This document shows positions 1,901-34,850 of a stretch of 34,850 nucleotides of DNA, one piece after another. How positions within the stretch are numbered: position 1 is the first letter of the stretch; each line of letters starts with the position of its first letter. The notes beneath the pieces are model-generated. The model was not told where the DNA came from and did not search any database. It saw only the letters and a program-made list of their open reading frames with translations. The position numbers were made by a program, and so were the translations under genes. The stretch spans positions 1 through 34,850 of the forward strand of contig CAZQAZ010000002.1 of the NCBI GenBank assembly GCA_964591855.1, read 5' to 3'. Source of the DNA: Candidatus Woesearchaeota archaeon (lineage in GTDB: Archaea > Nanobdellota > Nanobdellia > CAZCWL01 > CAZQAZ01).

Positions 1901-1924
1901 TTTATTTTATTTGATTCGATATGA

Positions 1925-1934: not shown

Positions 1935-1952
1935 CTTTTGTTGTGAAGGTTT

Positions 1953-6512: not shown

Positions 6513-6516
6513 AGCA

Positions 6517-14724: not shown

Positions 14725-14774
14725 ATAAATCTATATTGGAAAAGGTATTTAAGATTTGGTGTTCTACAATTAGT

Positions 14775-16412: not shown

Positions 16413-16455
16413 AAATCTTTATAAAAACGAAGATTCTTAATTAATTTGGTGTACC

Positions 16456-17001: not shown

Positions 17002-17010
17002 GGGATTGAG

Positions 17011-17604: not shown

Positions 17605-17623
17605 ATTAATGGAGGTAAATTAA

Positions 17624-18196: not shown

Positions 18197-18201
18197 AAGC
18201 T

Positions 18202-18885: not shown

Positions 18886-19271
18886 ACATCACCCTTTTCT
18901 TTTAGTTCTTTTACAATCTTTATAACATCTTCCTTACTTAAAAACCTTGTTGGGTCAAGGTAATCTAAGTATTTGGACAGAACTGCCACTTCTCTTTTCT
19001 TTGCGGTGTCTTTTAATTCGAGCATTATATGCTTGATTGCATCTTGTACTTCAAGCATATCACTTTTTAGTCTCCTTGTGGTATGTTCTAACTTACCAAC
19101 TTCGTCTTTAAGGTCTCTTGTCTTATCTATTAAGTTTCTATCAACAACGTCTATCTTCTGTTTGAGTATGTCCACCCTTCCTTCAAGTGCTCTTATCCTC
19201 TCGCTAAGTTCAGAGAGCTTTTTTGTTATGTATCTGCTGTATTCTATTTGGGTTTGTGTCTCTTTTGCCAT
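18882..19271 (-). CDS. Hypothetical coiled-coil protein
   Basis: Continuous heptads (LSELSERIRALEGRVDILKQKI...). Start placed at MAKETQ (19271) to avoid overlap with the divergent ATPase. Confidence 0.8.
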   Translation of the reverse strand: MAKETQTQIEYSRYITKKLSELSERIRALEGRVDILKQKIDVVDRNLIDKTRDLKDEVGKLEHTTRRLKSDMLEVQDAIKHIMLELKDTAKKREVAVLSKYLDYLDPTRFLSKEDVIKIVKELKEKGDV

Positions 19272-19289
19272 GATTAATTTAATAAACTT

Positions 19290-19307
19290 CAAAGTTATAT
19301 AACTTTG
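19290..19307. promoter_or_regulatory. Perfect 18-bp palindrome containing a TATA box in the divergent promoter region
   Basis: CAAAGTTATATAACTTTG equals its own reverse complement and ends 1 bp before the ATPase ATG. Confidence 0.65.
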
Positions 19308-19308
19308 T

Positions 19309-21564
19309 ATGAACAATGAAATTAAGTACAAAGTAGAGAGAGAAGGCTCAGAAAAGATTTTAACATTTGATTACACGAAATCTGTCATCTACCCTTCTAT
19401 TGAGGACAATGAAGAGGTTATGGAACAAGCAGTTAATGCTATAATAGAAGTTGGGAGGGTTACTACCCTCATCTTCATGGCTGAAAGGAATTATATTTAT
19501 GACTTCAAGCAGACAAACCTCCTTAATCAAATAGCAGAGCTATACATTGATTTAACAAAGGTAAAAGACATAATGGGACCAAAGTACATGGGTGAACTTT
19601 GTCCCGAGCATTATCCCAAAAGATTGTTTTACATAAGAAAGATTGTGTTGGAGATGTTCAAGAAGGATCCTATTGGGGCCTATGTTGAAACAGTAAGAGC
19701 CTTAAGAAAAGAGGAGATAGAGGAAACAAACCACCCGAAATGTAAGAAGACAACAATACGCTTACTTAAAACAATCAAGGAAGAACTTGAAATGGCAGAC
19801 CTGATAAAGGCTGCCAAACCTTTTCTAGCAGGTTACATAATTGGTGACAGGAGAATATACAGGAAGTTCTTCATACCACAGATAAGGCCTAACTTCATGT
19901 ACACAAGACTTATGGCCGAACCTCCCACTATGGGCGAGGAGGTTGAAACATACAGCATAGATAAAGACACAGAGGTTACTATATATAGAATTCCTGGAAA
20001 GGCAAGGTTGTTGTATCAAATTAATCCTCCTGAGTTTAAGCTTAAAGAGGATGAGTATGTTCTATTAGATGAGGTTAGAGACATCTTAACCAAGTATAAA
20101 CCTAAGGAAGAAGAGTTCACAAACCCACAAAGAATGAGAGACGTCTTCTTTAACATCTCAAAAGATCTGTTAGCAAAAATAGCGGAGGAGAGGAAGATAA
20201 AACTTAGCTACGAAAGGCTTCAGAGGTTGGCGAAGATACTTGTTAGATTAACTGTTGGCATAGGTTTAGTTGAGGTGATGTTAAAGGATAAGAGATTAGA
20301 AGACGTGTACATAAATGCTCCAGTAGGTATGACTCCTATTTACATAAAGCATGCGGATTATGGAGAGTGTGAGACTAATGTTTACCCTAACCCAAGGGAA
20401 GTTCAAACATGGGCAACAAGGTTTAGGATGATATCGTCTAGACCTCTTGATGAAGCAAACCCAGTTTTGGACTTCGACCTTGAGCTACCAAATGTTAACA
20501 CCAGAATAGCAGCCGTCCAACAGCCCTTGAGCCCAAGAGGTATTGCCATAGCTTTCAGAAGACACAGAGAAAGACCATTCACACTTCCTTTACTAATAAA
20601 ATACAAGTCTATAACACCATTTGCTGCAGGACTGCTGTCATTTTTAATAGATGGGAATAGGAGCTTTCTAATAGCAGGTACGAGAGGTTCTGGTAAAACT
20701 TCATTTCTATCTGCAATGATGGTTGAGATCATGAGAAAGTTTAGGATCATAACAGTAGAAGATACTCTTGAGTTACCAACCAGCTATTTGAGAAGGATAG
20801 GATATAACATTCTCCCAATTAAAGTTAGAAGTGCGATAAGTGGAGAGACATCTGAGTTTTCAGCTGAGAAAGGACTAAGAACCACGTTACGTTTAGGTGA
20901 TTCTTCTTTGATAGTTGGAGAGGTTAGATCAGAAGAAGCAAGAGCTTTGTACGAAGCTATGAGAGTTGGTGCTCTGGCAAATGTTGTAGCTGGTACTATA
21001 CATGGAGACTCACCATATGGTGTGTTTGATAGGGTTGTTAATGACTTGGGTGTCCCAAGGACATCATTCAAAGCAACAGACATAATAATCATAGCAAATA
21101 AGATCAAAACCCCAGATCAATTGTCTGAGATAAGAAGGGTTACGAGCATAACAGAAGTAAAGAAGCATTGGGAGAAGGATCCACTCTTAGAGAAAGGTTT
21201 CATGGACTTAATGAGATACGATGCCAAGAAGGACATGTTAAAACCAACGAAGGCTTTACTTGAAGGAGAGTCGGATGTTGTTAAGTCTATTGCAGTCAAT
21301 GTTAGAGAGTGGGTTGGGAATTGGGATGCGGTGTTAGAGAATATTAACCTTAGAGCCGATGCAAAGAGAATGCTTGTAGAGTACTCGGATAAAATAAACA
21401 ACACAGAGATACTTGAGGCGGACTTTGTGGTTGATTATAATGATGCATTTCACACTTTATATGCTCAGCTTAAAGAAGAATATGGTTACGTTGAGCCAAA
21501 GAAGCTTCTTTCTGAGTTAGAGGATTGGCTAAAGACAAAGATAAGAGAGGGAAGGTATGCCTAA
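19309..21564 (+). CDS. Type II/IV secretion-pilus assembly ATPase (VirB11/CpaF/ArlI family) with long N-terminal extension
   Basis: Walker A GTRGSGKT, Asp box TVEDTLEL, LRL, Walker B LIVGEVR, His box GTIHG, and RRVTSITEV. Confidence 0.95.
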   Translation: MNNEIKYKVEREGSEKILTFDYTKSVIYPSIEDNEEVMEQAVNAIIEVGRVTTLIFMAERNYIYDFKQTNLLNQIAELYIDLTKVKDIMGPKYMGELCPEHYPKRLFYIRKIVLEMFKKDPIGAYVETVRALRKEEIEETNHPKCKKTTIRLLKTIKEELEMADLIKAAKPFLAGYIIGDRRIYRKFFIPQIRPNFMYTRLMAEPPTMGEEVETYSIDKDTEVTIYRIPGKARLLYQINPPEFKLKEDEYVLLDEVRDILTKYKPKEEEFTNPQRMRDVFFNISKDLLAKIAEERKIKLSYERLQRLAKILVRLTVGIGLVEVMLKDKRLEDVYINAPVGMTPIYIKHADYGECETNVYPNPREVQTWATRFRMISSRPLDEANPVLDFDLELPNVNTRIAAVQQPLSPRGIAIAFRRHRERPFTLPLLIKYKSITPFAAGLLSFLIDGNRSFLIAGTRGSGKTSFLSAMMVEIMRKFRIITVEDTLELPTSYLRRIGYNILPIKVRSAISGETSEFSAEKGLRTTLRLGDSSLIVGEVRSEEARALYEAMRVGALANVVAGTIHGDSPYGVFDRVVNDLGVPRTSFKATDIIIIANKIKTPDQLSEIRRVTSITEVKKHWEKDPLLEKGFMDLMRYDAKKDMLKPTKALLEGESDVVKSIAVNVREWVGNWDAVLENINLRADAKRMLVEYSDKINNTEILEADFVVDYNDAFHTLYAQLKEEYGYVEPKKLLSELEDWLKTKIREGRYA

Positions 21565-23617
21565 AGTCAATGAAACCGAAGAAGAAAAAATAGTTAAGAA
21601 CTTGTTTCAAAGGTACTTGGAAAAGCAAAAAAAGAAAGCAGAGATCACTTCAAGAGAGTACAAGCTATTCACAAAAAAATACGTTCCTCAAGAAGTAAGG
21701 CTATACTACAACCTCGTTAAGAAAATCTCAAAATTCTTTAAAGTTAAAGCCCCAGCGAAACAAAAGGAGAAGTTAGACGATGCTTTGAAGAAAGTTTACC
21801 TGCCATTAACAGCTGATGAGGTTGTATCCTTTTCTTACTTTGTGCTCATTGTAGCTTTGATTGTGTCTATAGGAGCTTTTTTTGTGTACCCCTTACTGGG
21901 TGCATTGCTTGTTCCGTTTTCTATTCTATTGTTTTATAACCTGTACAATTATCCAATAACCTTGTATCTTGTGCAGAAGGCAAGAGCGTCAACAGAACTT
22001 ATACTCTCTATTCTTTATATAGTTATATTTATGCAAACCACTCCAAACCTTGAGAATGCTTTAAAATTTGCAGCTGATAATCTTCGTGGACCACTCTCAA
22101 GAGATTTTCAGAAGATACTTTGGGATCTTCAGGCAGCCAAATATCCAACCTTAGCAGACGCCCTTAACGAGTATGTGCTACAGTGGGAGGATAAGAATAA
22201 GGCATATATGGATGCAATCCATCTTATTGAAGCTTCACTTTCCCAAACTGACGAAAAGAGAAGGTTAGCAATGCTTGAGGGAGCTCTTAATAGAATATTA
22301 AGTGGGACTATAGAGGTTATGAACCACTATGTCAATGAGGTAAAAACACCTGTTGATGCTCTTTTCATGCTTGGTGTCACACTTCCTGTTATGGGTCTTG
22401 TTTTATTTCCAATCATTGGAGCATTTATGGGTGGTGTGATATCGGCTGGAATGTTGTTTGTGTTCTATGACATAGCTATCCCCGCGATGGTCATGATAAT
22501 AGGAAGGAATATCCTTCAGAAGAGACCTGTGGCATTTAGACAGCCAGATGTGTATAACCATCCTGAAGCTCCAAAGAAATGGCATTTCAAGTTCATGAAG
22601 TGGCAGATACCTTCTATTGTTCCAGCGATCTTGGTTTTCCTTGCATTCTTCCTACCTTTCCTTTATTACTTCCTTAACTTTAGGGGTGGGCTAGAGAATC
22701 CCAAAACAGCGGATGTATACATGAGTTTTCTATTCACGCTTTCTATAGGTATGGGTATATGGGCATTCGCATACTTTGAGTCTCATCAGAAAATGAAGAT
22801 AAGAGAGAAGATAAAAGATATTGAGACCCACTTCGCTGACGCTATATTCCAAGTTGGTAATAGAATGGCTGAAGGTTTCCCACCAGAAACAGCTTTGATA
22901 AAGACTGCTAACTCTATGAGGGGCACGACTTTCTATGGATTTATATGGAGGATTGTACACAATTTGAATGATCTTGGTATGAATCTTAGAGATGCGATAT
23001 TCAATAAAGTTAGTGGTGCAGTGAAGTTTTTCCCAAGCCCAATGATAGAATCCGCTATGAAGATATTTGTATCAAGTGCTGAGAAAAGCCCAGACGTAGC
23101 TGCGAAAGCATTGATTTCTATTTCAAGGTACCTTAAGAAGGTTCACGACATAGAGGAGAAGGTTAACGATGTGATGAGTGAGATTCTCAGCAACATGAGA
23201 TTCCAAGCATCTTTCATAGCACCAATGATATCAGGTATAGTCGTTGGTTTAACTACTATGATAATTAGGGTGCTATTCGCTATACGGGGTAAGACTGAAT
23301 TGTTGCAGCAAGCCCTTACACAGCAAGGTCAGATGGGTCTAGGAATGTTCGGATTTGGTATGTTTAAGATCTCAAATACACTTCCATTGGATGTATTTCA
23401 AATTATTGTTGGGGTTTACATGTTAGAGGTAGTTATAATTTCTTCTAGTTTGTCTGCTCAGATCAAATATGGAGACGATAAACTTCAAATCCTGCACAAT
23501 ATTGCTACCCTTCTTCTTCCAGCAATACTTGTTTACTTGGCGGTCTCGTTAATAACAACGTTCCTATTCTCTTCTATAGCAGATCTGGCAATTGCCGTTG
23601 GTGCAGCTACAGGATAA
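21557..23617 (+). CDS. Pilus platform membrane protein (TadC/ArlJ, two T2SSF-like domains)
   Basis: Overlaps the ATPase stop. TM clusters alternate with two cytoplasmic domains (NLENALKFAA..GPLSRDF; FADAIFQVGNRMAEGFPPETAL). Confidence 0.88.
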   Translation: MPKVNETEEEKIVKNLFQRYLEKQKKKAEITSREYKLFTKKYVPQEVRLYYNLVKKISKFFKVKAPAKQKEKLDDALKKVYLPLTADEVVSFSYFVLIVALIVSIGAFFVYPLLGALLVPFSILLFYNLYNYPITLYLVQKARASTELILSILYIVIFMQTTPNLENALKFAADNLRGPLSRDFQKILWDLQAAKYPTLADALNEYVLQWEDKNKAYMDAIHLIEASLSQTDEKRRLAMLEGALNRILSGTIEVMNHYVNEVKTPVDALFMLGVTLPVMGLVLFPIIGAFMGGVISAGMLFVFYDIAIPAMVMIIGRNILQKRPVAFRQPDVYNHPEAPKKWHFKFMKWQIPSIVPAILVFLAFFLPFLYYFLNFRGGLENPKTADVYMSFLFTLSIGMGIWAFAYFESHQKMKIREKIKDIETHFADAIFQVGNRMAEGFPPETALIKTANSMRGTTFYGFIWRIVHNLNDLGMNLRDAIFNKVSGAVKFFPSPMIESAMKIFVSSAEKSPDVAAKALISISRYLKKVHDIEEKVNDVMSEILSNMRFQASFIAPMISGIVVGLTTMIIRVLFAIRGKTELLQQALTQQGQMGLGMFGFGMFKISNTLPLDVFQIIVGVYMLEVVIISSSLSAQIKYGDDKLQILHNIATLLLPAILVYLAVSLITTFLFSSIADLAIAVGAATG

Positions 23618-23666
23618 GTATAATAAGGTTTTTATAGTTCCGTTTTTATTATTATTCTATAAAATA

Positions 23667-23673
23667 AGGAGGT
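23667..23673 (+). promoter_or_regulatory. Strong Shine-Dalgarno site of the pilin gene
   Basis: AGGAGGT 6 nt before ATG 23680; TTTTTATA TATA-like box at about 23629-23636. Confidence 0.65.
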
Positions 23674-23679
23674 CTCAAG

Positions 23680-24081
23680 ATGAAAGCACAAGGTTTGCCT
23701 TTGAACTTTGTAATTTTAGGTGCTTTGGCACTTTTGGTGTTAGTAGTTGCAGTAGCTTTCTTCATGTCAGGTACGGCAACCCTTTCAACAGCGGTGAGTC
23801 AACAACAAGTCCAGACGACATGTAACAATTTGTGTAACCAAATAAACAGAGAAGTGCAGAAGAATTATACTCTATCCGCAACTATGTGTAACTCTACGAG
23901 CAATGCATGTCTTGGGGGGAACGCATTAAATTTGGCAGAAAAGTTCGTACAGACAACCTATAAAGTCTCAGGGCTTGGGGAAGTAACATGTTACAACATT
24001 ACTTCTTGTGAGGTAACGTTCAGAGACGCAACTAACTGCCTCATAACACCTGCTAGTGGTATTAAGGTTACATGTATATAA
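23680..24081 (+). CDS. Type IV pilin with class III signal peptide (probable major pilin)
   Basis: MKA|QGLPLNFVILGALALLVLVVAVAFF; 8 Cys; sequons NYT, NST, NIT; directly after the ATPase and platform genes. Confidence 0.85.
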   Translation: MKAQGLPLNFVILGALALLVLVVAVAFFMSGTATLSTAVSQQQVQTTCNNLCNQINREVQKNYTLSATMCNSTSNACLGGNALNLAEKFVQTTYKVSGLGEVTCYNITSCEVTFRDATNCLITPASGIKVTCI

Positions 24082-24086
24082 AGAAC

Positions 24087-24108
24087 TTTTCTTTTCTTTT
24101 TCTCTTTT
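24087..24108 (+). terminator. Oligo-U archaeal terminator after the pilin gene
   Basis: TTTTCTTTTCTTTTTCTCTTTT begins 6 nt after the stop. Confidence 0.65.
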
Positions 24109-24139
24109 AGTAACGTATTTAATTTAATAGCTTTTTAGA

Positions 24140-26335
24140 ATGGGTATGGGATTTAGGAAGGCGGCTGAGCCACACCAAGCGATATTGATTTTTATATTAG
24201 GTCTTGTTACTTTCTCATTTATTCTATTTGGTATAGTTAGTGTGATATGCGGAACGATAGTTGGTTTTTCACAATTTAGTGGTAAGGACTTATTATGTAA
24301 AATACCGCATGCTGAAAGCGTATTTGCATCAGAAGATGAGGAGGATGTTGATATCTTCGGTGTGAGCTTGGCATCTAAAAGAATAGATGCGAATGTGCTT
24401 GCGTTGGATTTCAAACTTGATAATCTTGCGAGGGGTATATTGCCAGGGGCTGGGCTATGTACAGCAGATGTTGGTTGCTATTTGGGAAGTAGGATGTTGC
24501 CACCTTATTCTAATAAGGTGTACAGAACAGTTTATGCAGGGACTTATCCTTGTGAAGTTCCAGTTGTGCCAAAAGGAGACGATCCAATTTTCCAAGGTGA
24601 GAGCGAGGACCTGAAGTTCACAGCAAGAGTCAGTGGGAATTGCATGTACACAGAGACGGTGTTGGAGAATAACACTGTTGTAGTTAGTAGCGAAGACATA
24701 GTGGAGCAACAGGATGGGACAAAGATACATTATCTACTTGATCCTGTGAACTTTGCAGTTTATGAGGATGAAATTAAAGACGATGAGATAGCATTGAAAG
24801 TTGCTAAGATTAACAATCCAAATCATGACGACCCTGTGACGATCTCAGTAACAGGGATGACAAGTAGAGGTTTCAGAAAGATTTTGATGAGTGATGTTAT
24901 GGATTGGGATTCATGTAGCGATTATGTGTGCGAGAGTATACTCACTTTTCCAAGAGGAGATTCAGCGAAAAAATGCGGGGACACTCTTGCAGCCTTTCTT
25001 TCGAGATCTGTATACGAAATAAACAAAAGTGATAATTCAATTGTGATATCCGATGATAGTAGTGGGGACTTTGTTAAAGAGAATGTGATTCTTTCTAAGG
25101 AGGATGTTCTAAACACATCCCTTGAGAAAGGAAAGTACTTCTATCAAGTATTTAAAGTTGGTAAGGACACAAATGTTAAAGGTGTGTTTGTGTTTGGTAG
25201 AGTAAAGGAAAGTTATGTTGGGTCGGGTTCACTTCCGAAGGTGAATATTGATGTGTATGATTTTACCACTGGTGATACTCTGTACTCGGGTTCTATCCCT
25301 GTTAGTGAAGTCTTTTTGAGCGAGTTTGAATTTCCAGAAAGCAAGGCTGTTAGTAGGGGTGATGTGTTACTTTTGAGGATAAGTTCAGGCGATGCAGACT
25401 TAGAGATCTACAATTCATTCCTCAACAATGATTTATTGAGTTTCATGGGATATAACAAGACAGACTCTCCTGTAAGCGATCTGGGAAGCTTAGATATTAG
25501 CACTGATCAGATGTATTATCTTTATCCTATACTAGACGATACCGATTATAAGTTCAGGCTTAATCTATTACTTAACAGTCCTTACTCATCTTTAGACATA
25601 TATAATCTAACCGTTAATTTGACAAGCAATTTAATAGATAGTAGAGACAGTCTTCAATTTAAGATAAAGTTTGGCGATTCGGAAGAGGAGCACACTATGG
25701 ATTGTACACTCTACCAGGGAGAGTTAAGTAACGTGTACTGTGAATTCGATCCAGATGGTCCAGTAGTGATACCTAGCCCTGGAGAGATAGAGATTGTGTT
25801 TGATGACTTAAGACCATTGGAGGTACCTGTGTTTACGGAGTCTGACGAAGGCGTCGTGTCAGGCCCAAAGTTAGCATTTGAAAACATACTTTTTTCAACA
25901 CCAATAGTTCCAAATATGAGCATAGGGATGGGGCACTACCCCCTTTTAGAGTGTTACACGTTCAAGGTTTATGATGGGGGATATGTGAGTGATACTTCGG
26001 ATGTAAATGATGTTGTAACCTTTTTGAAAAGTGAAAAAGATGCTGAGGCTAAGGTGTCCGACAGTCCTGACGGCAAGAACATAGTTTACATCGATGAGGG
26101 TTCTTCAATAAGTGTAGACGATCTTAACCCTGCAAGCAAGGATTATTTCTTTACATATATATACTCCCAATTGTTTGGAGAGAATTATGGCTATGGTGTT
26201 GGTGGTACGAGTGAGATACTCTACTTGGATTACTCGAACCAAAAAGTGATATACGAGAAGAGCCCTGACTCTAGTGTGGATGAGAAAGCGTTGGTAGCAG
26301 CCTTAGTATGGGCTACTGGAAAGGTGGTGAGTTGA
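24140..26335 (+). CDS. Large acidic N-anchored surface protein, possible class III signal (731 aa)
   Basis: MGMGFRKA|AEPHQAILIFILG plus a hydrophobic helix; Asp/Glu/Ser/Val-rich beta-type body with several Cys and sequons. Confidence 0.72.
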   Translation: MGMGFRKAAEPHQAILIFILGLVTFSFILFGIVSVICGTIVGFSQFSGKDLLCKIPHAESVFASEDEEDVDIFGVSLASKRIDANVLALDFKLDNLARGILPGAGLCTADVGCYLGSRMLPPYSNKVYRTVYAGTYPCEVPVVPKGDDPIFQGESEDLKFTARVSGNCMYTETVLENNTVVVSSEDIVEQQDGTKIHYLLDPVNFAVYEDEIKDDEIALKVAKINNPNHDDPVTISVTGMTSRGFRKILMSDVMDWDSCSDYVCESILTFPRGDSAKKCGDTLAAFLSRSVYEINKSDNSIVISDDSSGDFVKENVILSKEDVLNTSLEKGKYFYQVFKVGKDTNVKGVFVFGRVKESYVGSGSLPKVNIDVYDFTTGDTLYSGSIPVSEVFLSEFEFPESKAVSRGDVLLLRISSGDADLEIYNSFLNNDLLSFMGYNKTDSPVSDLGSLDISTDQMYYLYPILDDTDYKFRLNLLLNSPYSSLDIYNLTVNLTSNLIDSRDSLQFKIKFGDSEEEHTMDCTLYQGELSNVYCEFDPDGPVVIPSPGEIEIVFDDLRPLEVPVFTESDEGVVSGPKLAFENILFSTPIVPNMSIGMGHYPLLECYTFKVYDGGYVSDTSDVNDVVTFLKSEKDAEAKVSDSPDGKNIVYIDEGSSISVDDLNPASKDYFFTYIYSQLFGENYGYGVGGTSEILYLDYSNQKVIYEKSPDSSVDEKALVAALVWATGKVVS

Positions 26336-26491
26336 ATGGTATCGGAATCATTTGAGCGTGTTGTTATGTTAATACTTGTACTTATATTTATAGCTTTGAT
26401 AGCAGGAATACTATTCATACTCTTTTCGGGTGCTAAAGGGAACATAGGTAGTAGTCAAACTGTATACTCTTTGGCTAAGCTGTGGAGTTGA
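26336..26491 (+). CDS. Mini pilin-like membrane peptide (51 aa), not in the ORF track
   Basis: Hand translation MVSESFERVVMLILVLIFIALIAGILFILFSGAKGNIGSSQTVYSLAKLWS*. ATG abuts the upstream TGA, GGTGGTGA precedes it, and it ends 4 nt before the next ATG. Confidence 0.75.
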   Translation: MVSESFERVVMLILVLIFIALIAGILFILFSGAKGNIGSSQTVYSLAKLWS

Positions 26492-26495
26492 AACA

Positions 26496-28271
26496 ATGGG
26501 TGTGGTGAAAGAAAACGCATTGATGATTGTAGTAGCCTTGGTTCTAGTAGCATTAGTTACATATATAGTGTTTCTAACTACTGGAGGAGTGTCAAAGTTA
26601 AGCTTAGGAATGGATAAGATCCTATGTACATCCACAGCTTCTTTAAGAGGTTATGTCTTCAGTAGTAAGTATATGCATTGGGCCTATTACAAACATCCAG
26701 AATTGTTTAGCAAAGTGGATACGATATTCCCAGTAATGTGTAAAAAGCAAGTTTACTTTGTTTCCCCTGTTACAGACTACGATCCAGTCAACAAGTACGA
26801 CGATGAAATCAAAGAGAAGGAGTTAGCTAACTATGATGAAGGAAGCGACGAGTACAACTCTCGCTTAGCTTACTGGAGACTTGTTTACCTTTTAAGAGAC
26901 CAAGCCAAAGACTGTTCTGATAGGTATGATCATGGAGACCCTCTTTTCCCCGGGGGATATGGAAAGAACCCAGCTATATGTTCAATAATTTTCTACGATC
27001 TTAACAATACATTTGATGTTAAGGTTAGAAAGGTACATTTCGACGAGAATGCTTACGGTTTGCTTAACCCAGGGCTTGTTCCACTTAGAAACGATGCTGA
27101 CATAAGGGAGTTTGTTGAAGAGATTTATGGCAAAAAAGAGTGTGATGCAATCCTCTTCCCAACTCACTCCACAGACTTCTGGCCTGTGAATTATGAAGAT
27201 GAAAAGTGTGAAAATGTTCCGACAGATGAAGCCGCAGATAGCTTGGATTTTGGGTGCGGTGAAAGTTGTACACTTGTAGACAGTAGGCTTAATAATGTGG
27301 TTGGAGTTCCACTTTCTAGCTCTGAAAGAGAGGAGTTAATAAGAGGTTATATGGATGGTAGTATATCTGAGATTAGGCTAACAACGGACGCAGACGAAGG
27401 TAATTTTATATGGTGTTCAACTGAGCTCTATGAAAAGGCGCTAGGGAATGCGGACTACTTATGTGCTAACTTCACATACGATCCCGAGTACGATGTTCCA
27501 GGGCTTATTAATGATGTGATGACGAAGCTTATAAAGAAAGACCAAAAGTGGTGGACAGATCAAAAAGAGATTAATTCATTAGGTATGGGGCAGTGGATAT
27601 GTGGAGCAAGGGGAGGGTATGGTGTGCAGTGTCCATTATATGCACACATTGATGGGAGTATGTTTTGTCCAGGAAAAGGTTCATCGAGTTTAGCTCCAGG
27701 TTACGACTGCATATACATCACAGATTGGGTGGAAGGATACTCTAAAGATACTGTTAAGGGACAACACATAAACCCTACTGATATAAGATCAGGTTGTGCG
27801 GCCAAGCCTCATCCAGGCTTAGGAATAAATAAGCCGGCAAGCCTTTCAAGAGGAGTTATATTTGTAACGTTTTTAGACTTGTGGGATGACAATTGGAATG
27901 ATGTTGTATGGGGTAGAGACTTCATGGGGGAAGGAAGGTATGTTCCAACCAAACAAGCTGCTATTCCTCCTAATAACAAAGTTGTCTTTGTGATATTTGA
28001 TGAAAGCTGGATGCTGCCAGGAAGAGGTGTTGTACCAACAAACGATCCAGGTACTTATCCATCATTTGGCTGTCTTCAAAGTTCAACAGCATTATTAAAA
28101 GTTTGGTCCGGTATGAAAAATGCATGGGTAGAGGGATGGTCAAATTATGCTAAGGATTGGTGTAAGGGGAGAAGCAAAGCAAGTGTGGTGAAAGAAGCAT
28201 TGTTGGTGCCGAATCCAGACGTTATTACAGGTGGTCTATCGGCTCTAGGAATAAACTATCTGGTGTGTTAA
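26496..28271 (+). CDS. N-anchored Cys-rich acidic surface protein (591 aa); paralog of 28282-29232
   Basis: N-terminal TM helix; shares PLFPGGYGKNPAICSIIFYDL and RGVIFVTFLD blocks with the next gene. Confidence 0.75.
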   Translation: MGVVKENALMIVVALVLVALVTYIVFLTTGGVSKLSLGMDKILCTSTASLRGYVFSSKYMHWAYYKHPELFSKVDTIFPVMCKKQVYFVSPVTDYDPVNKYDDEIKEKELANYDEGSDEYNSRLAYWRLVYLLRDQAKDCSDRYDHGDPLFPGGYGKNPAICSIIFYDLNNTFDVKVRKVHFDENAYGLLNPGLVPLRNDADIREFVEEIYGKKECDAILFPTHSTDFWPVNYEDEKCENVPTDEAADSLDFGCGESCTLVDSRLNNVVGVPLSSSEREELIRGYMDGSISEIRLTTDADEGNFIWCSTELYEKALGNADYLCANFTYDPEYDVPGLINDVMTKLIKKDQKWWTDQKEINSLGMGQWICGARGGYGVQCPLYAHIDGSMFCPGKGSSSLAPGYDCIYITDWVEGYSKDTVKGQHINPTDIRSGCAAKPHPGLGINKPASLSRGVIFVTFLDLWDDNWNDVVWGRDFMGEGRYVPTKQAAIPPNNKVVFVIFDESWMLPGRGVVPTNDPGTYPSFGCLQSSTALLKVWSGMKNAWVEGWSNYAKDWCKGRSKASVVKEALLVPNPDVITGGLSALGINYLVC

Positions 28272-28281
28272 AGGTGATGAA

Positions 28282-29232
28282 ATGTTAAGCAAAGTGACAA
28301 TGCTTATAATTGGAATCATTGTGCTAGCTCTTGGATTCTTTATAGTACTAAAGATTATTCCCGCTTACAATGAAAACTTCTCATATCATGTTTGTCACCT
28401 TTTTGCTTTCACGAGAGGGTTTATATTAAGAGACTGGGAGAATGTTGTGCCAAACAGATTAACAGTTAAGATATACGATGCAATAGCTAAGTTTATACCA
28501 TTACCATGTAAGGCAAGAAGCTTTAATATTAGTAGGATGGATTATGCAACGGACGAGGAATTTAAAGACGATTTCATAAGACTTGTTGGTAATCAAATAA
28601 TAGCATGTGATAATTTATTCCATTACAAGAACAATAATCCACTTTACCCGGGTGGTGCTGGAAGAAATCCTTTTGTGTGCTCTGTTATAAGATACAACCT
28701 TAAGAGACCTGATGGCTCAGTAATGGAACTTAGTTCATCCGAGTTTATTAATGGATTACAGAACATGAAAATAAGTTCTTTAAAGACAGAAGACGTGACT
28801 CTCAAAGACAAAGTTAACTTCATGTATGAGAGTGAGTTTTTGAGAGACACAGATAAGGAAGAGAAATGCAAGGGATGTTATAGGATAACAGGGGATTACA
28901 AAGCTAGTGACCCTGACTGCCAAGATCCAGTATGCTTTTATGGTAATTTCTTTGGAGCACAGGATCCTATCTCCAGTGAGGAGAGTGTAAACCTAAGATC
29001 AGAAGGTGTCATTTATATAACATTCCTTGACTACCCTGGAAGAATGATAACAAGGTATGACATAGGTAACAATGCATGTGGCTTTGGTGAGTTGTATGTT
29101 GAGGAGAGAGCTATAACTGGTGCTTCTAAGTGGAAGCTTGGTAACTTTATTTTACATTGGGAAGAATCCGAGATTGAGCCACAAGACATAGTTTTACTTT
29201 GTTACGAATCTTTAAATACAGGAAGCTCCTAA
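28282..29232 (+). CDS. N-anchored Cys-containing surface protein (316 aa); paralog of 26496-28271
   Basis: AGGTGA SD upstream; TM helix; PLYPGGAGRNPFVCSVIRYNL and EGVIYITFLD blocks. Confidence 0.75.
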   Translation: MLSKVTMLIIGIIVLALGFFIVLKIIPAYNENFSYHVCHLFAFTRGFILRDWENVVPNRLTVKIYDAIAKFIPLPCKARSFNISRMDYATDEEFKDDFIRLVGNQIIACDNLFHYKNNNPLYPGGAGRNPFVCSVIRYNLKRPDGSVMELSSSEFINGLQNMKISSLKTEDVTLKDKVNFMYESEFLRDTDKEEKCKGCYRITGDYKASDPDCQDPVCFYGNFFGAQDPISSEESVNLRSEGVIYITFLDYPGRMITRYDIGNNACGFGELYVEERAITGASKWKLGNFILHWEESEIEPQDIVLLCYESLNTGSS

Positions 29233-29239
29233 GATTTCT

Positions 29240-29398
29240 ATGAGGAAAGCATCCATATGGGAAAAACCAGTTAGTATTATTCTTATTATCGTAATAGCAG
29301 CTTTGCTCATATTTTTGATCTACATGTGGCTTGGTAAGTGGGGGGCTAGCCATGCAAGCAGTATTGCAGACGCTATTGACATCACGAAGTATGTGTAA
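29240..29398 (+). CDS. Mini pilin-like protein with class III-like signal (52 aa), not in the ORF track
   Basis: Hand translation MRKA|SIWEKPVSIILIIVIAALLIFLIYMWLGKWGASHASSIADAIDITKYV*; starts 7 nt after the upstream stop. Confidence 0.75.
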   Translation: MRKASIWEKPVSIILIIVIAALLIFLIYMWLGKWGASHASSIADAIDITKYV

Positions 29399-29558
29399 AG
29401 GTTTAAGGGCGATGTCCTTAGGGATAAGTGTTGTGATAGTTTTAGCAGTGGCAATTCTATTTGCCGTTGTGATGATTTTTATAATATACCCAATGGCCAT
29501 GTCCTCAAATACAACCCTTATGACTTTTGCAGATAAGATAGTGAATGCTTTCTCTTAA
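29391..29558 (+). CDS. Mini pilin-like protein (55 aa)
   Basis: MCKGLRA|MSLGISVVIVLAVAILFAVVMIFIIYP...NTT. Start moved from 29331 to 29391, giving an 8-nt overlap with the previous ORF; 29412 is an alternative start. Confidence 0.68.
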   Translation: MCKGLRAMSLGISVVIVLAVAILFAVVMIFIIYPMAMSSNTTLMTFADKIVNAFS

Positions 29559-29596
29559 GGCTTAATTATTTATACTAAGAACTCATTATCATTATT

Positions 29597-29785
29597 ATGA
29601 AAAAGGGAGTTGAACTTTCTGTAAATTTTATGATAATTCTAGCAATAGCAGTACTTGCAGCAGTCGTATTCATTTTATTTTACATCTCATCATCCCAGTC
29701 TGCCCAAGGTTCTTTGTGGAACATTAAGAGGAACATATCAGATGTCTTAATAAACAACACAACTTCTTCAATAGGAGTGACCTGA
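29597..29785 (+). CDS. Mini pilin with class III signal peptide (62 aa)
   Basis: MKKG|VELSVNFMIILAIAVLAAVVFILF; sequons NIS, NNT, NTT; TTTATA about 22 nt upstream. Confidence 0.82.
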   Translation: MKKGVELSVNFMIILAIAVLAAVVFILFYISSSQSAQGSLWNIKRNISDVLINNTTSSIGVT

Positions 29786-29786
29786 T

Positions 29787-31577
29787 TTGGTTAGTAAGGA
29801 GACCATAAGCGCTATTGGTGGTCTTATTGGTAGTTTTATTTTAGTTTGGATTCTTGCAAGCTCTTTTGGCATGCTCCCAACATCAAACAGGTATAAAGAA
29901 ACTTTTGATACGTTAGAAGAAGGATTCTACAAGGCAGGAAAGTATGGTTCTGCAGTTGTTACTGGTTATGGATTCTTCTATTACGATACTCATAAAAGAT
30001 ACTTTTGTGACCAGAGCAAAGTAAGTGTAAATCTTCCTACAAAAGAACCAAGTACATCTTTGTGGTTTGTGCAAAAGCATTCGCAAGATTATTCCTATCC
30101 ATTAATAATCTTTGTCAAGTCGAGTAAACTTGCCAAACATCTTGAGAGTATTAGAGACGTTGTTGGGGAGCAAGCAGGAAGTCTCATTGACAAAGATGTT
30201 CAAACATTAAGGCAGTGCGATGGTGAGTACTGCATGTGCTATGTGGAGATGTACCCACCATATTCAGGATATGTTCCAGAGGGATTTGAGTACGTCAGAT
30301 TCCAGAAAGTTAATTCTGTGGTGGATGACTCGAATGAGATTGTATCTATGCAGGGAGAAGAGGTAAATATTAATGATTATTTGTATAGCCCATCATTAAC
30401 AGACACTTTCTGGGATGCATTTACTATTTTGCATGAGGAAAAACTGTTCAACCAAAATACATTTAACAAAACCATGCCCTACATTAAAAAGTGCATAGAC
30501 TTCCACAGAATGTGTTCATGCGAGCCAAATGTATGTAGAGGATTAGACCAAGAGAAATGTGAAGATTACAAGACATTTGGTTACGACTGTCAGTGGGACG
30601 CCGATGAAGGTTCTTGCGTACAGAAGATAAGTCCAGCATGCATCCCAACAGCAACCTTTAAAGTGGATAGTAAAGATATGATAATGCCAATAGCTACTGT
30701 GTCTCCGTTAAACGCTAAACTATGGAATATACCAGACAAACCTCAAGATCAACAGGTATACATAGACAGAATGGGCTGCGTCTTGAATATAAGAGACATG
30801 TCCTCTTTGAAGGAGCCTCTCCTAGGGGAGAAATTTAGTGTAGCATACCAAGTGGATATCCCTTTGGCGAACATTATTGATAACAATAAAATAGTGACGA
30901 AAGTCTGCTCTGACGATTTTAAAGTGGAGGGGGACCAAGTGAGTGTGAGGATAAAAAAGAGTAGTTATACCTCAGCTCTAAAATTTGATGTAGAAGAGTT
31001 GAGTAAATTTGTATTTGGACCTGATGCTGTAAAGAGTGGAGATATAAGATATAACGTTACAAATGCAGATATCCTCTGGGGGGACTTGGGGAGTCAAGGG
31101 TTAGCGAAAGATATTCGGTTAAAACAGGAGAGTGGGCTTGTAGAAGAGATAGATGCTATCTTTTATCGTTCAGAAGAAATCCACGAAGTGGAAGACGTGA
31201 GCACTTTCATAAGGTATTTGAGCGTAACGTACAATTTGACAGGAAAGCGTACCAAAATAATAGGAAGAATTTATCCTTATATTATAGAGAATAAAGGGGA
31301 TACTATTATAGAAGGGTTTTATAGCAAGAAAACCTTTAACCATAATTATAATGATAAAGAGTTGTCAGAGTGGGGAATAACTTATTTTAATATAAGTGGA
31401 TATGGCTTAGGAGAGTTTGCGAAGTGGGACGAGTTAAGACCCGCAGCATATGTAAAAAATCAAAATTCATACACATGCTCTTCAGGTTATCCTTATGATG
31501 ATTATGCAAAATATTTCTACTGCTTAGAAAAAGATTCTGAGATAAAATGTGGTGGGGGCTATAAATCATGGCCATGA
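29787..31577 (+). CDS. Large N-anchored surface protein with internal Cys-rich module (596 aa)
   Basis: TTG start; N-terminal hydrophobic helix; CSCEPNVC..EKC..YDCQW..GSC..PAC segment. Confidence 0.72.
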   Translation: MVSKETISAIGGLIGSFILVWILASSFGMLPTSNRYKETFDTLEEGFYKAGKYGSAVVTGYGFFYYDTHKRYFCDQSKVSVNLPTKEPSTSLWFVQKHSQDYSYPLIIFVKSSKLAKHLESIRDVVGEQAGSLIDKDVQTLRQCDGEYCMCYVEMYPPYSGYVPEGFEYVRFQKVNSVVDDSNEIVSMQGEEVNINDYLYSPSLTDTFWDAFTILHEEKLFNQNTFNKTMPYIKKCIDFHRMCSCEPNVCRGLDQEKCEDYKTFGYDCQWDADEGSCVQKISPACIPTATFKVDSKDMIMPIATVSPLNAKLWNIPDKPQDQQVYIDRMGCVLNIRDMSSLKEPLLGEKFSVAYQVDIPLANIIDNNKIVTKVCSDDFKVEGDQVSVRIKKSSYTSALKFDVEELSKFVFGPDAVKSGDIRYNVTNADILWGDLGSQGLAKDIRLKQESGLVEEIDAIFYRSEEIHEVEDVSTFIRYLSVTYNLTGKRTKIIGRIYPYIIENKGDTIIEGFYSKKTFNHNYNDKELSEWGITYFNISGYGLGEFAKWDELRPAAYVKNQNSYTCSSGYPYDDYAKYFYCLEKDSEIKCGGGYKSWP

Positions 31578-32515
31578 GGAAAAGTCAAGAAGAGATTAAT
31601 ATAATAACAGCATTACTCATACCAGCGTTGGCTTTCCTACTTTTGTTAGTAGTCCTTTATGTTAACATGCTACCTGTTATTGATCCTTATATGTTCGCTC
31701 TTTTATTTGCACACGATGTTGGCACATTAGTAGATAGCGCGTATGCTTCGCCAGGAAATATAAGGTTTGTATACTCTGGACCGATTCCTTGTAAACCTGA
31801 TTACTCAAAAGGAGTTTTGAACTGCACAAAAGGCTCTTCGTGGATAGCCATGGGCTTTGGAAGTGGCCATGGAGAGAACTACAAAGTTGAGACAGCTTTA
31901 TACGATTTGCTTTTAGGAAACCCCGAACTCGTGGCTAACATCCCAAAGGTGGCTTTTGTAAACATACCCTTTACGGCAAAGATAAGGAAACTTACCGGCA
32001 CAATGGATATAGAGGGAACATCAACTTATTTCTCTGAACCTAGCACTTATGATTTCATGATGAGAAAAGGGAAATCTATAGGCATGTATTTAGCAAATGG
32101 TGGTGTTGTTATAAGAAAAGTGCAAAAAAACTTCTTTGGAACAATTAGTTATTCTAATAAAGACAACTTGGGAGTAGACTTTATAATGTCTAAAGTCTTA
32201 GATGTGTGTGAGAGTGGGCAAGAAGAGACCTTTGATATAACTCTTCTTCCAAGGTATGTACTGTACTATAATAATTTAAAACTCTGCATGGCAGAACTCG
32301 ACAGTTCAAATAATCCTAGAGATATAGAGTGTTATAATTTTAATAGGATGGATGGATGTACAGTTAGCATAAGTTCTGATGACGACGAATTTGAACGTGA
32401 TGACAATTTTATCAGCAGAATTGGAAAGTTTAACGATGACCACTCTCATAAGATAAGAGTGAAGATATCTAAAAATGCGGATGGAGTAAGCATCTCTCTG
32501 AGTGAGGCAAAATGA
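31568..32515 (+). CDS. Pilin-like protein with class III signal (315 aa)
   Basis: MAMRKS|QEEINIITALLIPALAFLLLLVVL; FAHDVGTLVDSAYASPGNI; Cys pairs. Confidence 0.78.
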   Translation: MAMRKSQEEINIITALLIPALAFLLLLVVLYVNMLPVIDPYMFALLFAHDVGTLVDSAYASPGNIRFVYSGPIPCKPDYSKGVLNCTKGSSWIAMGFGSGHGENYKVETALYDLLLGNPELVANIPKVAFVNIPFTAKIRKLTGTMDIEGTSTYFSEPSTYDFMMRKGKSIGMYLANGGVVIRKVQKNFFGTISYSNKDNLGVDFIMSKVLDVCESGQEETFDITLLPRYVLYYNNLKLCMAELDSSNNPRDIECYNFNRMDGCTVSISSDDDEFERDDNFISRIGKFNDDHSHKIRVKISKNADGVSISLSEAK

Positions 32516-33111
32516 AAATGAGAAAGTCGCAGATGCAAATATCTGTATTTCATCTCTTAGCAGTAACTTTATCTATTATACTTGTTCTTTACGTTGCAAT
32601 ACTTCAAAATAAAGTGAAAATGGAGACCATATCTTCAAACACAGAAGCGCAGCACCTTCAATTAATAAGAAGACTTTTCACATCTCCTGATTGTCTTGCA
32701 TACGAAGATAGAGTTTATGATGTAATAGGAAATAAGATATATTCTGCTAGATCAACGAAACCATTTGTTGTGGACATGTGGAAGTGGCATAGTTGGGAAC
32801 ACTTTAATTGTGTTAGAGATGTGGTGGGCCTGGATCAGAGACCATCACAGTTTAGATACTATAATATAACTCTTTATGATTTGGATGAAGGGGCTAAGTA
32901 CACACAGGTATCGACCTTACCAAGCGAATGTGATGAGAATACTGGTGTGTGTTATGAATTAAGTGCTACTAAAGAATGTGATGAGAGATTCTTTTTTGAC
33001 ATGTTCCCTGTTAGAATCATGACACAAGATGGCGAACTTCATGAGGGTTTAGTTTATATCAAGAGTTGTATGGCTGGAAGGTTAGTCCTCCCAAGTGAAA
33101 TGGAGGTGTAA
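32512..33111 (+). CDS. Pilin-like protein with class III signal (199 aa)
   Basis: MKMRKS|QMQISVFHLLAVTLSIILVLYVAIL; SPDCLAYED; ATGA overlap with the upstream gene. Confidence 0.78.
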   Translation: MKMRKSQMQISVFHLLAVTLSIILVLYVAILQNKVKMETISSNTEAQHLQLIRRLFTSPDCLAYEDRVYDVIGNKIYSARSTKPFVVDMWKWHSWEHFNCVRDVVGLDQRPSQFRYYNITLYDLDEGAKYTQVSTLPSECDENTGVCYELSATKECDERFFFDMFPVRIMTQDGELHEGLVYIKSCMAGRLVLPSEMEV

Positions 33112-33116
33112 ACAAA

Positions 33117-34199
33117 ATGAGAAAAGCACAAGCGAAGTTATCGCAGTTTATAGGTGTTGTGCTACTTGTGTTTTTCTTCATATTTTCAATGCTCTACATA
33201 AAGCTTTTCCTAGCAGCCGATGACATATTAAGAGCATCATTCTCATTCAAGGAGAAGCTTGTTGAGCTTGGATGTAAGTCTACACTTTATTCCCTTCTGG
33301 ATTATGAGTACTATAAAGGAGATAATTCTCATTTGGATACTCTTTCATGTTCACGTTTGGGAGAAGATTTTATACCATATAATGAGACACACTGTATAAA
33401 CAAAGAGAGTGGTGAGATTAAGGAGGGGGATTACGACGAAAAGAAAGTTCTTTATAAAGTAATAGCAGATTACTACCCCCTACCGAGAGTTGTTTTGGTT
33501 CCAGACTGTGGCTCATATAATGAGACTTTTTATTTATTTAAGGGATGTGGCACTAAGGAGTCCGAAGATGTGTGCAATTACACTCTAAGGCCTTATCCTA
33601 CTGATGAAGAATGTAGTTCCTTTTTGGACGATGTTTGGAGTAAGTTCGAGTCGGAGGAGTACGGCTACTCTCCTGATGAGAAGGAAGAATACATTGTTGA
33701 GGTTAATTATACCGTCATAGAGGATGGAACATGTAAACGTGAAATATTCCTATACGAATTAGATCAATCTGAGTGTAGGCCTAGTGGTAGTAGTTTGTGT
33801 AGAGAGACATCAGGTTGCACACAAACTAAATATGGTCAGCTCTTTGAAGATGTAAAGAGTATTGTAACTGATGAATTAGGGAGTGCAAGTGAGATTCTAA
33901 ATCCAAACCTAAAGAGATGTGAGGAGAGTTATGCCGGTGAGTGTGGAGACGTAGGTGTACCTGTAGGGGAGGACTATTATTATTTCTCTGAGAGAGTGAA
34001 GTTACTTGATCAAAGTCTGGCAAGGTATGGTCTTCGCTTCTTGGGTGGGATCTCTGGCAAGGGAACAATACCATCGTCTACAGATATTAAGGGAATAACT
34101 CTCTGTGAAACAAATATATTCTCCGTGTACCAAACAGGAGACATAATAAAGAAAGGGATATTAAGTCCAATAGCATATATAATGTGGGGTTCGATATGA
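33117..34199 (+). CDS. Cys-rich acidic pilin-like protein with class III signal (360 aa)
   Basis: GGAGGTG SD; MRKA|QAKLSQFIGVVLLVFFFIFSML; many Cys and Glu. Confidence 0.78.
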   Translation: MRKAQAKLSQFIGVVLLVFFFIFSMLYIKLFLAADDILRASFSFKEKLVELGCKSTLYSLLDYEYYKGDNSHLDTLSCSRLGEDFIPYNETHCINKESGEIKEGDYDEKKVLYKVIADYYPLPRVVLVPDCGSYNETFYLFKGCGTKESEDVCNYTLRPYPTDEECSSFLDDVWSKFESEEYGYSPDEKEEYIVEVNYTVIEDGTCKREIFLYELDQSECRPSGSSLCRETSGCTQTKYGQLFEDVKSIVTDELGSASEILNPNLKRCEESYAGECGDVGVPVGEDYYYFSERVKLLDQSLARYGLRFLGGISGKGTIPSSTDIKGITLCETNIFSVYQTGDIIKKGILSPIAYIMWGSI

Positions 34200-34850
34200 G
34201 AAAGAGTCAAGAGTATGCAACTGGAACAATAATCTACCTACTTGTATTCTTTACAGTGCTTCTAGTTGGGACATACGGGATTCATAACAGATTCTTAATA
34301 GAAAGCAGGGCAAAGTCTTATCAGCTTACAGCATTAAGTGCGGAAGAAGTTGTTAAGGATGTTAAGCAGCTTGTAGGCTCAGAAAGAAGATACGCCTTAG
34401 AAAGATCACTTTTCTTAGTTGGGGCTTTTGGGGGGTACAATGCACCAGTTGATCTTCAAAAGATCCCTGATTGTGAGGGTGGTGATAAAAACATAATAAA
34501 TCTAACATACTGCCGTGATCCGAATAGTGGGGAGCCTGTGCCTGCAACTAACTTCAAATATAGAAACATTAACATAAGAGAGTGTGGAACCACTCCAGCT
34601 AAGTACGAAGGTGGATTTAGTTCGCTGATGGGGAAGATCATGCCTGAAAGAGAGTATGGGGTTCCATACTTTTATGACAGCAACTTTGGGGAGTGTCCTG
34701 CTTCGTATAATCTTGACATAGATGTGCTTAAGGGAAACATAGAGAATGTTTCTAAGGCATTTGCAGAGTTAGATCCAGATGTTTACAATTACATCAAAGA
34801 GAAGTACGGACGTTTCATTGACATAGATAAGTATTATGTCCTTAAAATAC
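34196..34850 (+). CDS. Pilin-like protein with class III signal, 3'-partial, not in the ORF track
   Basis: ATGA overlap; MRKS|QEYATGTIIYLLVFFTVLLVGTYG...LFLVGAFGGY...; frame stays open to the window end. Confidence 0.78.
   Translation, partial: MRKSQEYATGTIIYLLVFFTVLLVGTYGIHNRFLIESRAKSYQLTALSAEEVVKDVKQLVGSERRYALERSLFLVGAFGGYNAPVDLQKIPDCEGGDKNIINLTYCRDPNSGEPVPATNFKYRNINIRECGTTPAKYEGGFSSLMGKIMPEREYGVPYFYDSNFGECPASYNLDIDVLKGNIENVSKAFAELDPDVYNYIKEKYGRFIDIDKYYVLKI

Follow-up and report, generated by a model that had tools for sequence, protein, structure and literature searches.

Loci resembling those of type IV pili (T4P), with unrecognizable pilins and with coiled-coil proteins, are on record for the DPANN archaea in the texts of three studies (PMC6393860, PMC11291902, and PMC4858521). 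In the text of Makarova, Koonin, and Albers (2016), subclade 4F combines an extended ATPase, an intracellular coiled-coil protein, and an ftsZ context, and the cognate pilins of its "nanoarchaeal" members could not be found (PMC4858521). Makarova, Wolf, and Koonin (2019) outlined a DPANN island in which an ATPase (written "FliI") and TadC are flanked by unassignable signal-peptide proteins, read in their text as diverse pilins (PMC6393860). The text of Hamm et al. (2024) reports a pair of T4P-like loci that include coiled-coil proteins and are conserved across cluster-2 DPANN (Woesearchaeota, Pacearchaeota, Nanoarchaeota, Aenigmarchaeota, and Nanohaloarchaeota); in one species, they were supported by proteomic detection (PMC11291902). 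The text of Sivabalasarma and Albers (2026) states that Nanobdellati rarely have ordered type IV filament (T4F) loci (PMC13705601). DPANN archaea rely on cell contact with their hosts; pili-like links between ultrasmall cells and hosts have been imaged, as He et al. (2021) report in their text (PMC7906910). Here, we analyzed a locus of this kind in a genome of Candidatus Woesearchaeota archaeon (GenBank assembly GCA_964591855.1), starting from the first 34,850 bases (the window) of the 118-kb contig CAZQAZ010000002.1 (C2). The assembly comprises 574 kb in 22 contigs and is rated 93.6% complete, and the organism is tiny and probably host-dependent.

The locus encodes a machine of a known kind, not a new type of system, in a fast-evolving form that is typical of its lineage; such loci have been published (Makarova 2016 and 2019; Hamm 2024), and this one therefore adds detail rather than discovery. 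The new details are an ordered cassette of pilin-like genes, the class-wide linkage of an accessory module, ultrashort leaders, and divergence at the strain level. In the reading that we prefer and consider probable, this is the genome's only T4F assembly locus, it is not an archaellum locus, and the short leaders of its products are cut by a peptidase encoded on another contig (C5) as a surface filament is built.

The core of the locus lies on the plus strand and consists of an assembly ATPase of 751 amino acids (aa) (19309 to 21564) and, overlapping it by 8 nt, a polytopic 686-aa platform protein encoded by one fused gene (21557 to 23617). The ATPase was placed in the FlaI/TadA/VirB11 superfamily by Pfam, NCBIfam, and PDB sequence matches. 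It matched Pfam T2SSE (PF00437) at 7.9e-18 (64.7 bits; cutoff, 24.9), and its best matches among PDB sequences were Archaeoglobus fulgidus GspE2 (2oap; 6e-26), CpaF (1.6e-20), and FlaI (6e-18). The NCBIfam FlaI model (NF058587) aligned only to residues 215 to 643, and the protein extends beyond this region by about 215 residues at the N terminus and about 100 at the C terminus; it has 3 Cys in all. For the platform, we found 67 full-length homologs, 11 of them with a precomputed match to PF00482 (T2SSF), and 17 of 32 aligned homologs (23 to 55% identical; E values to the query down to 1e-248) matched PF00482 with a best E value of 1.4e-10. Because full-length homologs match this family, the platform can be assigned by transitive homology to T2SSF/TadC/ArlJ as a very divergent member. 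A PF00482 search of the whole genome gave nothing at an E value of ≤1, and the platform alignment profile gave nothing meaningful against PDB sequences. The platform was matched in 60 of the 61 genomes sampled from the class.

The window holds no prepilin peptidase and no archaellum gene, as the original prediction had stated, and the missing peptidase was located elsewhere in the genome. A 269-aa open reading frame (ORF) on contig C5 matched Peptidase_A24 (PF01478) at C5:25991-26293 (32.5 bits; cutoff, 26.5). Its sequence shows an Asp in a YYDSK context and a GGGD motif, which would be catalytic by analogy with PibD. The identities of the ATPase, the peptidase, and, through its homologs, the platform can thus be read from the sequences. 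A T2SSE search of the 93.6%-complete genome found no second T4F assembly ATPase and no retraction paralog, and the locus is the genome's only T4F assembly locus. One candidate for a second pilus ATPase, on contig C5 (C5:10508-10909; L004, 1084 to 2625, minus strand), was rejected: the 513-aa protein scores just below the T2SSE cutoff and combines a PIN domain with a P-loop, and its neighbors are unrelated.

The single ATPase also bears on whether the locus encodes a retractile or competence-like T4F that imports DNA or other macromolecules from the host instead of acting mainly as an adhesin. The reduced genome of 574 kb agrees with such uptake as a general point only, and the text of one study speculates on exchange through T4P for a DPANN archaeon (PMC5498576). 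With no retraction paralog, however, and with no DNA-binding or nuclease domain in Pfam and NCBIfam scans of the locus, we consider uptake very improbable. Motility by an archaellum is more improbable still, to the point of being hardly worth entertaining. FlaI is indeed the best NCBIfam model for the ATPase, but it scored only 132.8 to 133.3 bits against a cutoff of 550, TadA scored the same (132 bits; cutoff, 373; both about 1e-38), and the FlaI equivalog (ArlI) passed its cutoff in four control genomes. The best archaellin match (PF01917) in the genome reached 15.1 bits (cutoff, 29.5), Arch_fla_DE (PF04659) had no match in the genome, and FlaC_arch (PF05377) gave only subthreshold coiled-coil noise outside the locus; at 93.6% completeness, these results do not prove absence. 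Measured against the core set that PMC13705601 defines for archaeal T4F systems, the ATPase, platform, and A24 peptidase, with class III-like proteins at the level of motifs, together with archaellum markers that stay below their cutoffs, support a non-archaellum type IV filament locus, in agreement with the original prediction.

Downstream of the platform, 13 ORFs within the window form a tightly packed run on the plus strand in the order p133, p731, p51, p591, p316, p52, p55, p62, p596, p315, p199, p360, and p615 (named by their lengths in aa). The run had been predicted as 12 co-oriented ORFs of 51 to 731 aa, and it stands, with p55 as an overlooked thirteenth. Gaps between neighboring genes of the locus range from −8 to +62 nt. 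The predicted extent of 19309 to 34850 is too short: the locus continues for 8.3 kb beyond the window to about C2:43175, and a conserved accessory module of three four-transmembrane (TM) paralogs and two coiled-coil proteins lies upstream at 16456 to 19271. Beyond the window end, which p615 crosses, come co-oriented Cys-rich proteins of 1,263, 700, and 414 aa (p1263, p700, and p414, with 49, 44, and 20 Cys, respectively), giving 16 ORFs with an N-terminal helix in total. The whole locus measures about 24 kb, or roughly 4% of the assembly. Past its end lie genes for Alba, FKBP, FtsZ, SecE, Spt5, and L11, with ftsZ about 1 kb after the end.

An uncharged hydrophobic helix opens all 15 of the downstream ORFs scored, as predicted. 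Eight in-window ORFs start with [K/R]K[A/S/G] or MKA (p133, p731, p52, p62, p315, p199, p360, and p615), where at least seven had been claimed, and a [KR][GAS] site stands directly before the helix in 10 of the 16 locus ORFs (p414 and p55 judged by eye). Compared with a crude gene call of the whole genome (674 ORFs), both features are concentrated in the locus: the N-terminal helix was called in 14 of 15 locus ORFs versus 150 of 674 genome-wide, and the [KR][GAS] site before it in 9 of 15 versus 45 of 674. The large locus proteins are acidic (isoelectric point [pI], 4.3 to 5.5) and rich in Cys (1.6 to 3.9% in the window and up to 6.3% beyond it), as had been noticed, whereas the pI values of seven cytoplasmic proteins encoded in the window are 8.8 to 10.1.

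Related genomes share this architecture. The nearest public loci carry labels of Nanobdellati, Woesearchaeota, or Nanoarchaeia metagenome-assembled genomes (MAGs). Co-oriented ORFs with an N-terminal helix number 19, 18, 12, and 19 after the platform in four relatives (G010, G051, G013, and G002), and among the products of these runs are small pilins of the MKAQG type, mini-proteins, K[A/S]Q proteins, and giants that contain as many as 80 Cys. In G051, too, FKBP-Spt5-L11 marks the end of the locus. Across these four and 48 further regions, 37 relatives offered 9 kb or more of sequence after the platform, and there, by a crude ORF caller and a homemade helix rule that should be held against our reading, runs of at least 5 ORFs were counted in 20, runs of at least 10 in 15, and none in 11. 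Some relatives retain the ATPase without adjoining pilin genes. A search with mature domains (phmmer) tied p315, p199, p615, and p316 to positional counterparts in related loci, and the orthologs of the p315-to-p615 cassette keep the same order in other families. In these relatives, the synteny that the original prediction proposed to check exists in both architecture and cassette order. Its description of the locus as "expanded" and unusually complex did not hold up, because relatives share the architecture, including the ordered K[A/S/G]-Q cassette, and such runs are normal for the class. Contrary to the survey statement on Nanobdellati (PMC13705601), the relatives examined here suggest that many do have ordered T4F loci, with pilin-like genes too divergent for existing profiles.

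Several further points weigh against a filament built from these proteins. No locus protein reaches a Pfam or NCBIfam pilin family; Class_IIIsignal and Pilin_N gave no match, and the N terminus of p133 scored 16.8 bits against Arch_flagellin, below the cutoff of 29.5. Pfam and NCBIfam gave no direct match for the platform either. Five of the 16 ORFs (p51, p591, p316, p596, and p700) lack G, A, or S at position −1, as does p316 in the sister strain, and p1263 and p700 resemble, by eye, ordinary Sec/signal peptidase I signals, with n-h-c regions and small residues ending the helix. The claim of at least 12 pilin-like genes is therefore overstated. These same N termini would also suit a mixed neighborhood, in which only the [KR][GAS] ORFs are T4F substrates and p51, p591, p316, p596, p1263, and p700 are merely cotranscribed signal-anchored or Sec-secreted wall or adhesin proteins. 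The p316 orthologs of G010, however, carry KKG or KKA before the helix, all of the ORFs are co-oriented and tightly coupled, and the same kinds of ORF recur after the platform in other families, which leaves a mixed neighborhood improbable in our judgment.

The pilin-like set sorts into five groups: the p133 family, the mini-proteins (p51, p52, p55, and p62; 51 to 62 aa), the four-gene cassette, the pair p591 and p316, and the singletons p731 and p596. All are encoded on the plus strand. The small Cys-rich pilin-like protein p133 (23680 to 24081; MKA|QG...; 8 Cys) is a candidate filament subunit. By BLAST, it belongs to an eight-member family of small Cys-rich proteins in this genome, the other members of which lie at C2:67149-69080 and C2:72110-76926; its matches are q175, q116, q133, q147, and q139 (C2:67-77 kb), and p133-like small genes are present in relatives. 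Among the mini-proteins, p51 (26336 to 26491) consists of the helix only and has no [KR][GAS] site. The helix-only, mini-pilin-like p52 (29240 to 29398) starts with MRKA|S... and overlaps by 8 nt with the 55-aa helix-only mini-protein p55 (29391 to 29558; MCKG|L...). They are followed by the likewise helix-only, mini-pilin-like p62 (29597 to 29785; MKKG|VE...), which has N-terminal similarity to q147 and q139 and is a candidate Flp/Epd-like subunit without a globular head.

The large proteins are of a different kind. The acidic ectodomain protein p731 (24140 to 26335; pI 4.3; 12 Cys) starts with RKA|A... before its helix and belongs to no family that we could assign; the ESM Atlas gave no usable match to it and contains no model of it. 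The large acidic Cys-rich protein p591 (26496 to 28271; 18 Cys) has an N-terminal helix without a [KR][GAS] site and is a paralog of p316 (BLAST, 2e-7), an N-terminally anchored Cys-rich protein (28282 to 29232) that BLAST and phmmer link to a 299-aa protein of two related loci (L007/L023). The remaining large acidic Cys-rich protein, p596 (29787 to 31577), also has its helix without such a site.

The cassette comes next. Taking the ATG at the motif, its four products begin with MRK[S/A]-Q: p315 (31574 to 32515; MRKS|QEE...; orthologs in L025, L023, and L026), p199 (32518 to 33111; MRKS|QMQ...; orthologs in L023 and L025), p360 (33117 to 34199; MRKA|QAK...; 14 Cys; pI 4.6), and p615 (34196 to 34850, continuing to its stop at C2:36031; MRKS|QEY...; a 422-aa ortholog in L025). 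The positional counterparts of p360 in relatives have 208 and 183 aa and carry KAQFG. Mature Epd pilins have Gln at position +1, as would the K[A/S/G]-Q proteins here. Minor-pilin tip complexes of bacterial type II secretion systems and T4P are formed by GspH-I-J-K and by FimU-PilV-W-X, and the cassette resembles these sets in comprising four consecutive pilin-like genes of unequal size in a fixed order. We examined p315 most closely. It had 11 matching proteins at an E value of ≤1e-3 among 1.84 billion representatives, and their alignment conserves K-[GAS]-Q-x-[DE], a Pro within the helix, and an "AHD...AYS.P" block. Its AlphaFold2 (AF2) model (predicted local distance difference test [pLDDT], 73.4; predicted template modeling score [pTM], 0.45) has helices at residues 5 to 34 and 40 to 60 followed by beta sheets, a predicted fold that is compatible with a pilin. 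A Foldseek search of the model against the PDB returned none at an E value of ≤0.001. A wide VIA-align comparison gave a best Z score of 5.3, with GspK at 4.5, 6qvf at 3.9, ComZ at 3.6, MshA at 3.6, and PilS at 3.5, all below noise; this too counts against a pilin identity. The GspK alignment (3ci0_K; root mean square deviation, 4.4; 88 aligned residues) came without sequence homology.

The Epd pilus of Methanococcus maripaludis (T4F "system 1") is one of the closest known systems, with many different pilins per operon, a headless major pilin (compare p52, p55, and p62), and an adhesion role, as the text of a recent survey describes it (PMC13705601). System 1 differs in that its cluster encodes two separate platform proteins and a dedicated peptidase, whereas here one fused platform gene is present and the peptidase is encoded on C5 (PMC13705601). 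The Epd pilin type itself (DUF361/Class_IIIsignal; PF04021) has no match over the cutoff in this genome; the best hit (11.7 bits) was a 13-aa frame outside the locus.

From these parts, we propose the following scheme. The A24 prepilin peptidase of C5 would remove very short leaders, M-(R/K)-K-[A/S/G], from precursors of the class III type, and a hexameric ATPase of the FlaI/TadA type would power the fused double-T2SSF platform so that subunits are lifted from the membrane into a surface filament. The shaft would most likely consist of the small Cys-rich pilins (p133 and its seven paralogs), of the helix-only mini-pilins (p52, p55, and p62), or of both. The four-gene K[A/S/G]-Q cassette (p315, p199, p360, and p615) may act as a minor-pilin-like priming or tip set, and the large acidic disulfide-rich proteins (p731, p591/p316, p596, and the 1,263-, 700-, and 414-aa proteins) would be displayed binding or envelope parts. 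The membrane trio and the two cytoplasmic coiled-coil proteins upstream may be lineage-specific accessory parts of the motor. Cleavage, the pilin fold of the locus proteins, and the formation of a filament are what we infer from these likenesses, and adhesion to the host would be the most plausible role.

The weight of the large proteins invites another explanation, namely, that the machine is akin to a bindosome and, instead of building a long pilus, inserts or presents surface proteins with class III signal peptides or builds a short pseudopilus; it would then be the main route for mounting the disulfide-rich surface proteome. Most of the coding length indeed goes to large globular ectodomain proteins rather than to small subunits, no pilin family was matched, and binding proteins that carry class III signal peptides have been proposed to functionalize T4F machines (text of PMC13705601). 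Yet Pfam and NCBIfam scans found no substrate-binding-protein domain in the locus proteins, the BasE equivalog scored 61.7 bits against a cutoff of 1,000, and both the small p133-family pilin genes and the helix-only mini-pilins are present here and conserved in relatives. We regard a display machine as unlikely and retain the filament as the better account of the locus.

The accessory module begins with three paralogous membrane proteins of about 190 aa, each with about four long TM helices and no known family, all on the plus strand and related to one another by BLAST: u181 (16456 to 17001), u197 (17011 to 17604), and u190 (17624 to 18196), the last with a longer loop that carries NxT sites. 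Homologs of u197 and u190 occur in related loci. The AF2 model of u181 is all-helical (pLDDT, 79); its fold search found only generic helical hairpins (best Z score, 6.6), and its ESM Atlas matches were hypothetical DPANN clusters only. Two minus-strand genes follow, both aligned with their homologs. The first encodes u227 (18202 to 18885), a soluble protein in which a Pro/Glu-rich linker joins a small helical domain at the N terminus to a C-terminal coiled coil; it adjoins u149 (18882 to 19271), a coiled-coil protein of about 129 aa whose transcription diverges from that of the ATPase. When translation is taken to start at the ATG at 19271, u149 has no TM helix; its longest ORF extends to 19331. 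A complex prediction of the ATPase with u149 scored 0.00 and gave no verdict either way. Pfam scans of 11 u227 and 13 u149 homologs yielded only coiled-coil noise (for example, Laminin_II, NPV_P10, DUF7310, and Nup88), and since DUF7310 also hit 12 unrelated coiled-coil places in this genome below its cutoff, it makes no link to the haloarchaeal 4F proteins.

The module is linked to the motor throughout the class. In 9 related loci, homologs of the trio precede the ATPase, and u227 was found in 10; the complete order of trio, u227, u149, and ATPase occurs in 9 of the loci fetched, and u149 adjoins the ATPase in 12. Matches to u149 were found in 57 of 61 genomes. In 41 of 60 relatives, it shares a contig with the platform at a distance of 2.3 to 3.8 kb, which places it on the far side of the ATPase; in the others, it was on another contig (10), distant or on the other side (4), weak (1), or unmatched (4).

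This arrangement allows a direct comparison with the published loci. As in the cluster-2 DPANN loci, where a CpaF-type ATPase and a TadC-type platform adjoin one or two DPANN-specific coiled-coil proteins in the text of Hamm et al. (PMC11291902), u227 and u149 here sit immediately before the ATPase, and the two are presumably of the same family as those proteins. The interpretations differ: Hamm et al. liken the coiled-coil proteins to viral attachment proteins (PMC11291902), whereas u149 and u227 look cytoplasmic, having neither a signal nor a TM helix when read from the conserved start. Figures and supplements aside, neither the membrane trio nor an ordered series of pilin-like genes after the platform is described in their text (PMC11291902). 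The N-terminal extension of the ATPase, the coiled-coil proteins in the locus, and the nearby ftsZ-family gene recall subclade 4F as its text portrays it (PMC4858521), a likeness by description; the differences are that the ATPase has only 3 Cys in all and that candidate cognate pilins here stand directly downstream. The DPANN island of 2019 is described more generically, and its text gives no cassette order, accessory module, or divergence rates (PMC6393860).

The pilin-like proteins, as judged from the available sequences, diverge fast relative to the motor. In the sister strain, the platform is 96% identical, compared with 73% for p316 and 61% for p199, and the p199 ortholog starts with MRKAQ. 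Homolog searches with p316 and p199, within the length windows searched, returned the protein itself and one sister-strain protein each. In two low-depth sequencing runs (X4 and X5), the listed contig pieces over the trio, the coiled-coil genes, the ATPase, and the platform differ at 0 to 1.4% of positions and those over p133, p731, p316, and p360 at 0.4 to 4.5%, figures that are weak evidence, as these contigs have depths below 5. A second sample (X2) carries the same sequence over window positions 16400 to 34850, at a word depth of about 70 and with 0 to 2 differences per listed contig piece. The strain therefore recurs outside the probable source sample. Among the data sets listed as containing the locus, none was RNA.

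Because the motor is nearly identical between strains while the tip candidates are 61 to 73% identical, the locus can be read more boldly: the cassette and the giant disulfide-rich proteins would form a host-recognizing pilus tip engaged in an arms race, the locus would set the host range in Nanoarchaeia-type DPANN, and it would supply the "missing cognate pilins." We think this extended reading doubtful. Were it true, cognate pilins would have been found for a DPANN ATPase clade in which arCOG-based surveys score them as scattered or absent. The cassette and the ectodomain proteins, which diverge fast, offer concrete targets for work on host recognition in cultivated DPANN systems.

Other observations concern the relatives. 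In many genomes of the class (G052, G041, G027, G040, G010, and others), a second, distant platform paralog (21 to 28% identical) marks a second T4F system; the present genome has only one. In a Micrarchaeota MAG (L019:9983-13771), the orthologous ATPase is 1,262 aa long and contains an intein after the Walker region (Intein_splicing, 3.3e-19; LAGLIDADG_3, 5.7e-20). Another related locus has no platform gene and encodes, on the minus strand, a 2,361-aa protein with 186 Cys (L009:15088-22173; TSP3_bac and CarboxypepD_reg), which heads a convergent run of MKKAQ/MKKGA pilin-like genes beside the ATPase.

Genes upstream in the window include those for AglB/STT3, Cdc6, and FEN1, which mark the organism as an archaeon. 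Positions 1 to 6548 hold an N-glycosylation cluster with GT4, GT2, GT4, Glycos_transf_4 (AglH-like), and an 846-aa STT3/AglB; sequons are few in the locus proteins (0 to 7 each) compared with 32 in a 1,337-aa pilin-like giant elsewhere on the contig. Between a DUF357 gene and a THUMP/ThiI-like gene, the plus strand encodes a 427-aa Lys-rich protein without a Pfam family (11993 to 13276). Directly upstream of the membrane trio is a plus-strand gene for a 558-aa multi-TM protein with a PxP-rich linker and CarboxypepD_reg/Big_1-like domains (14736 to 16412). It is adjoined by a minus-strand gene (14332 to 14724) for a 130-aa protein that has an N-terminal helix and matches DUF4430 weakly, and which a 126-aa neighbor in G010 resembles.

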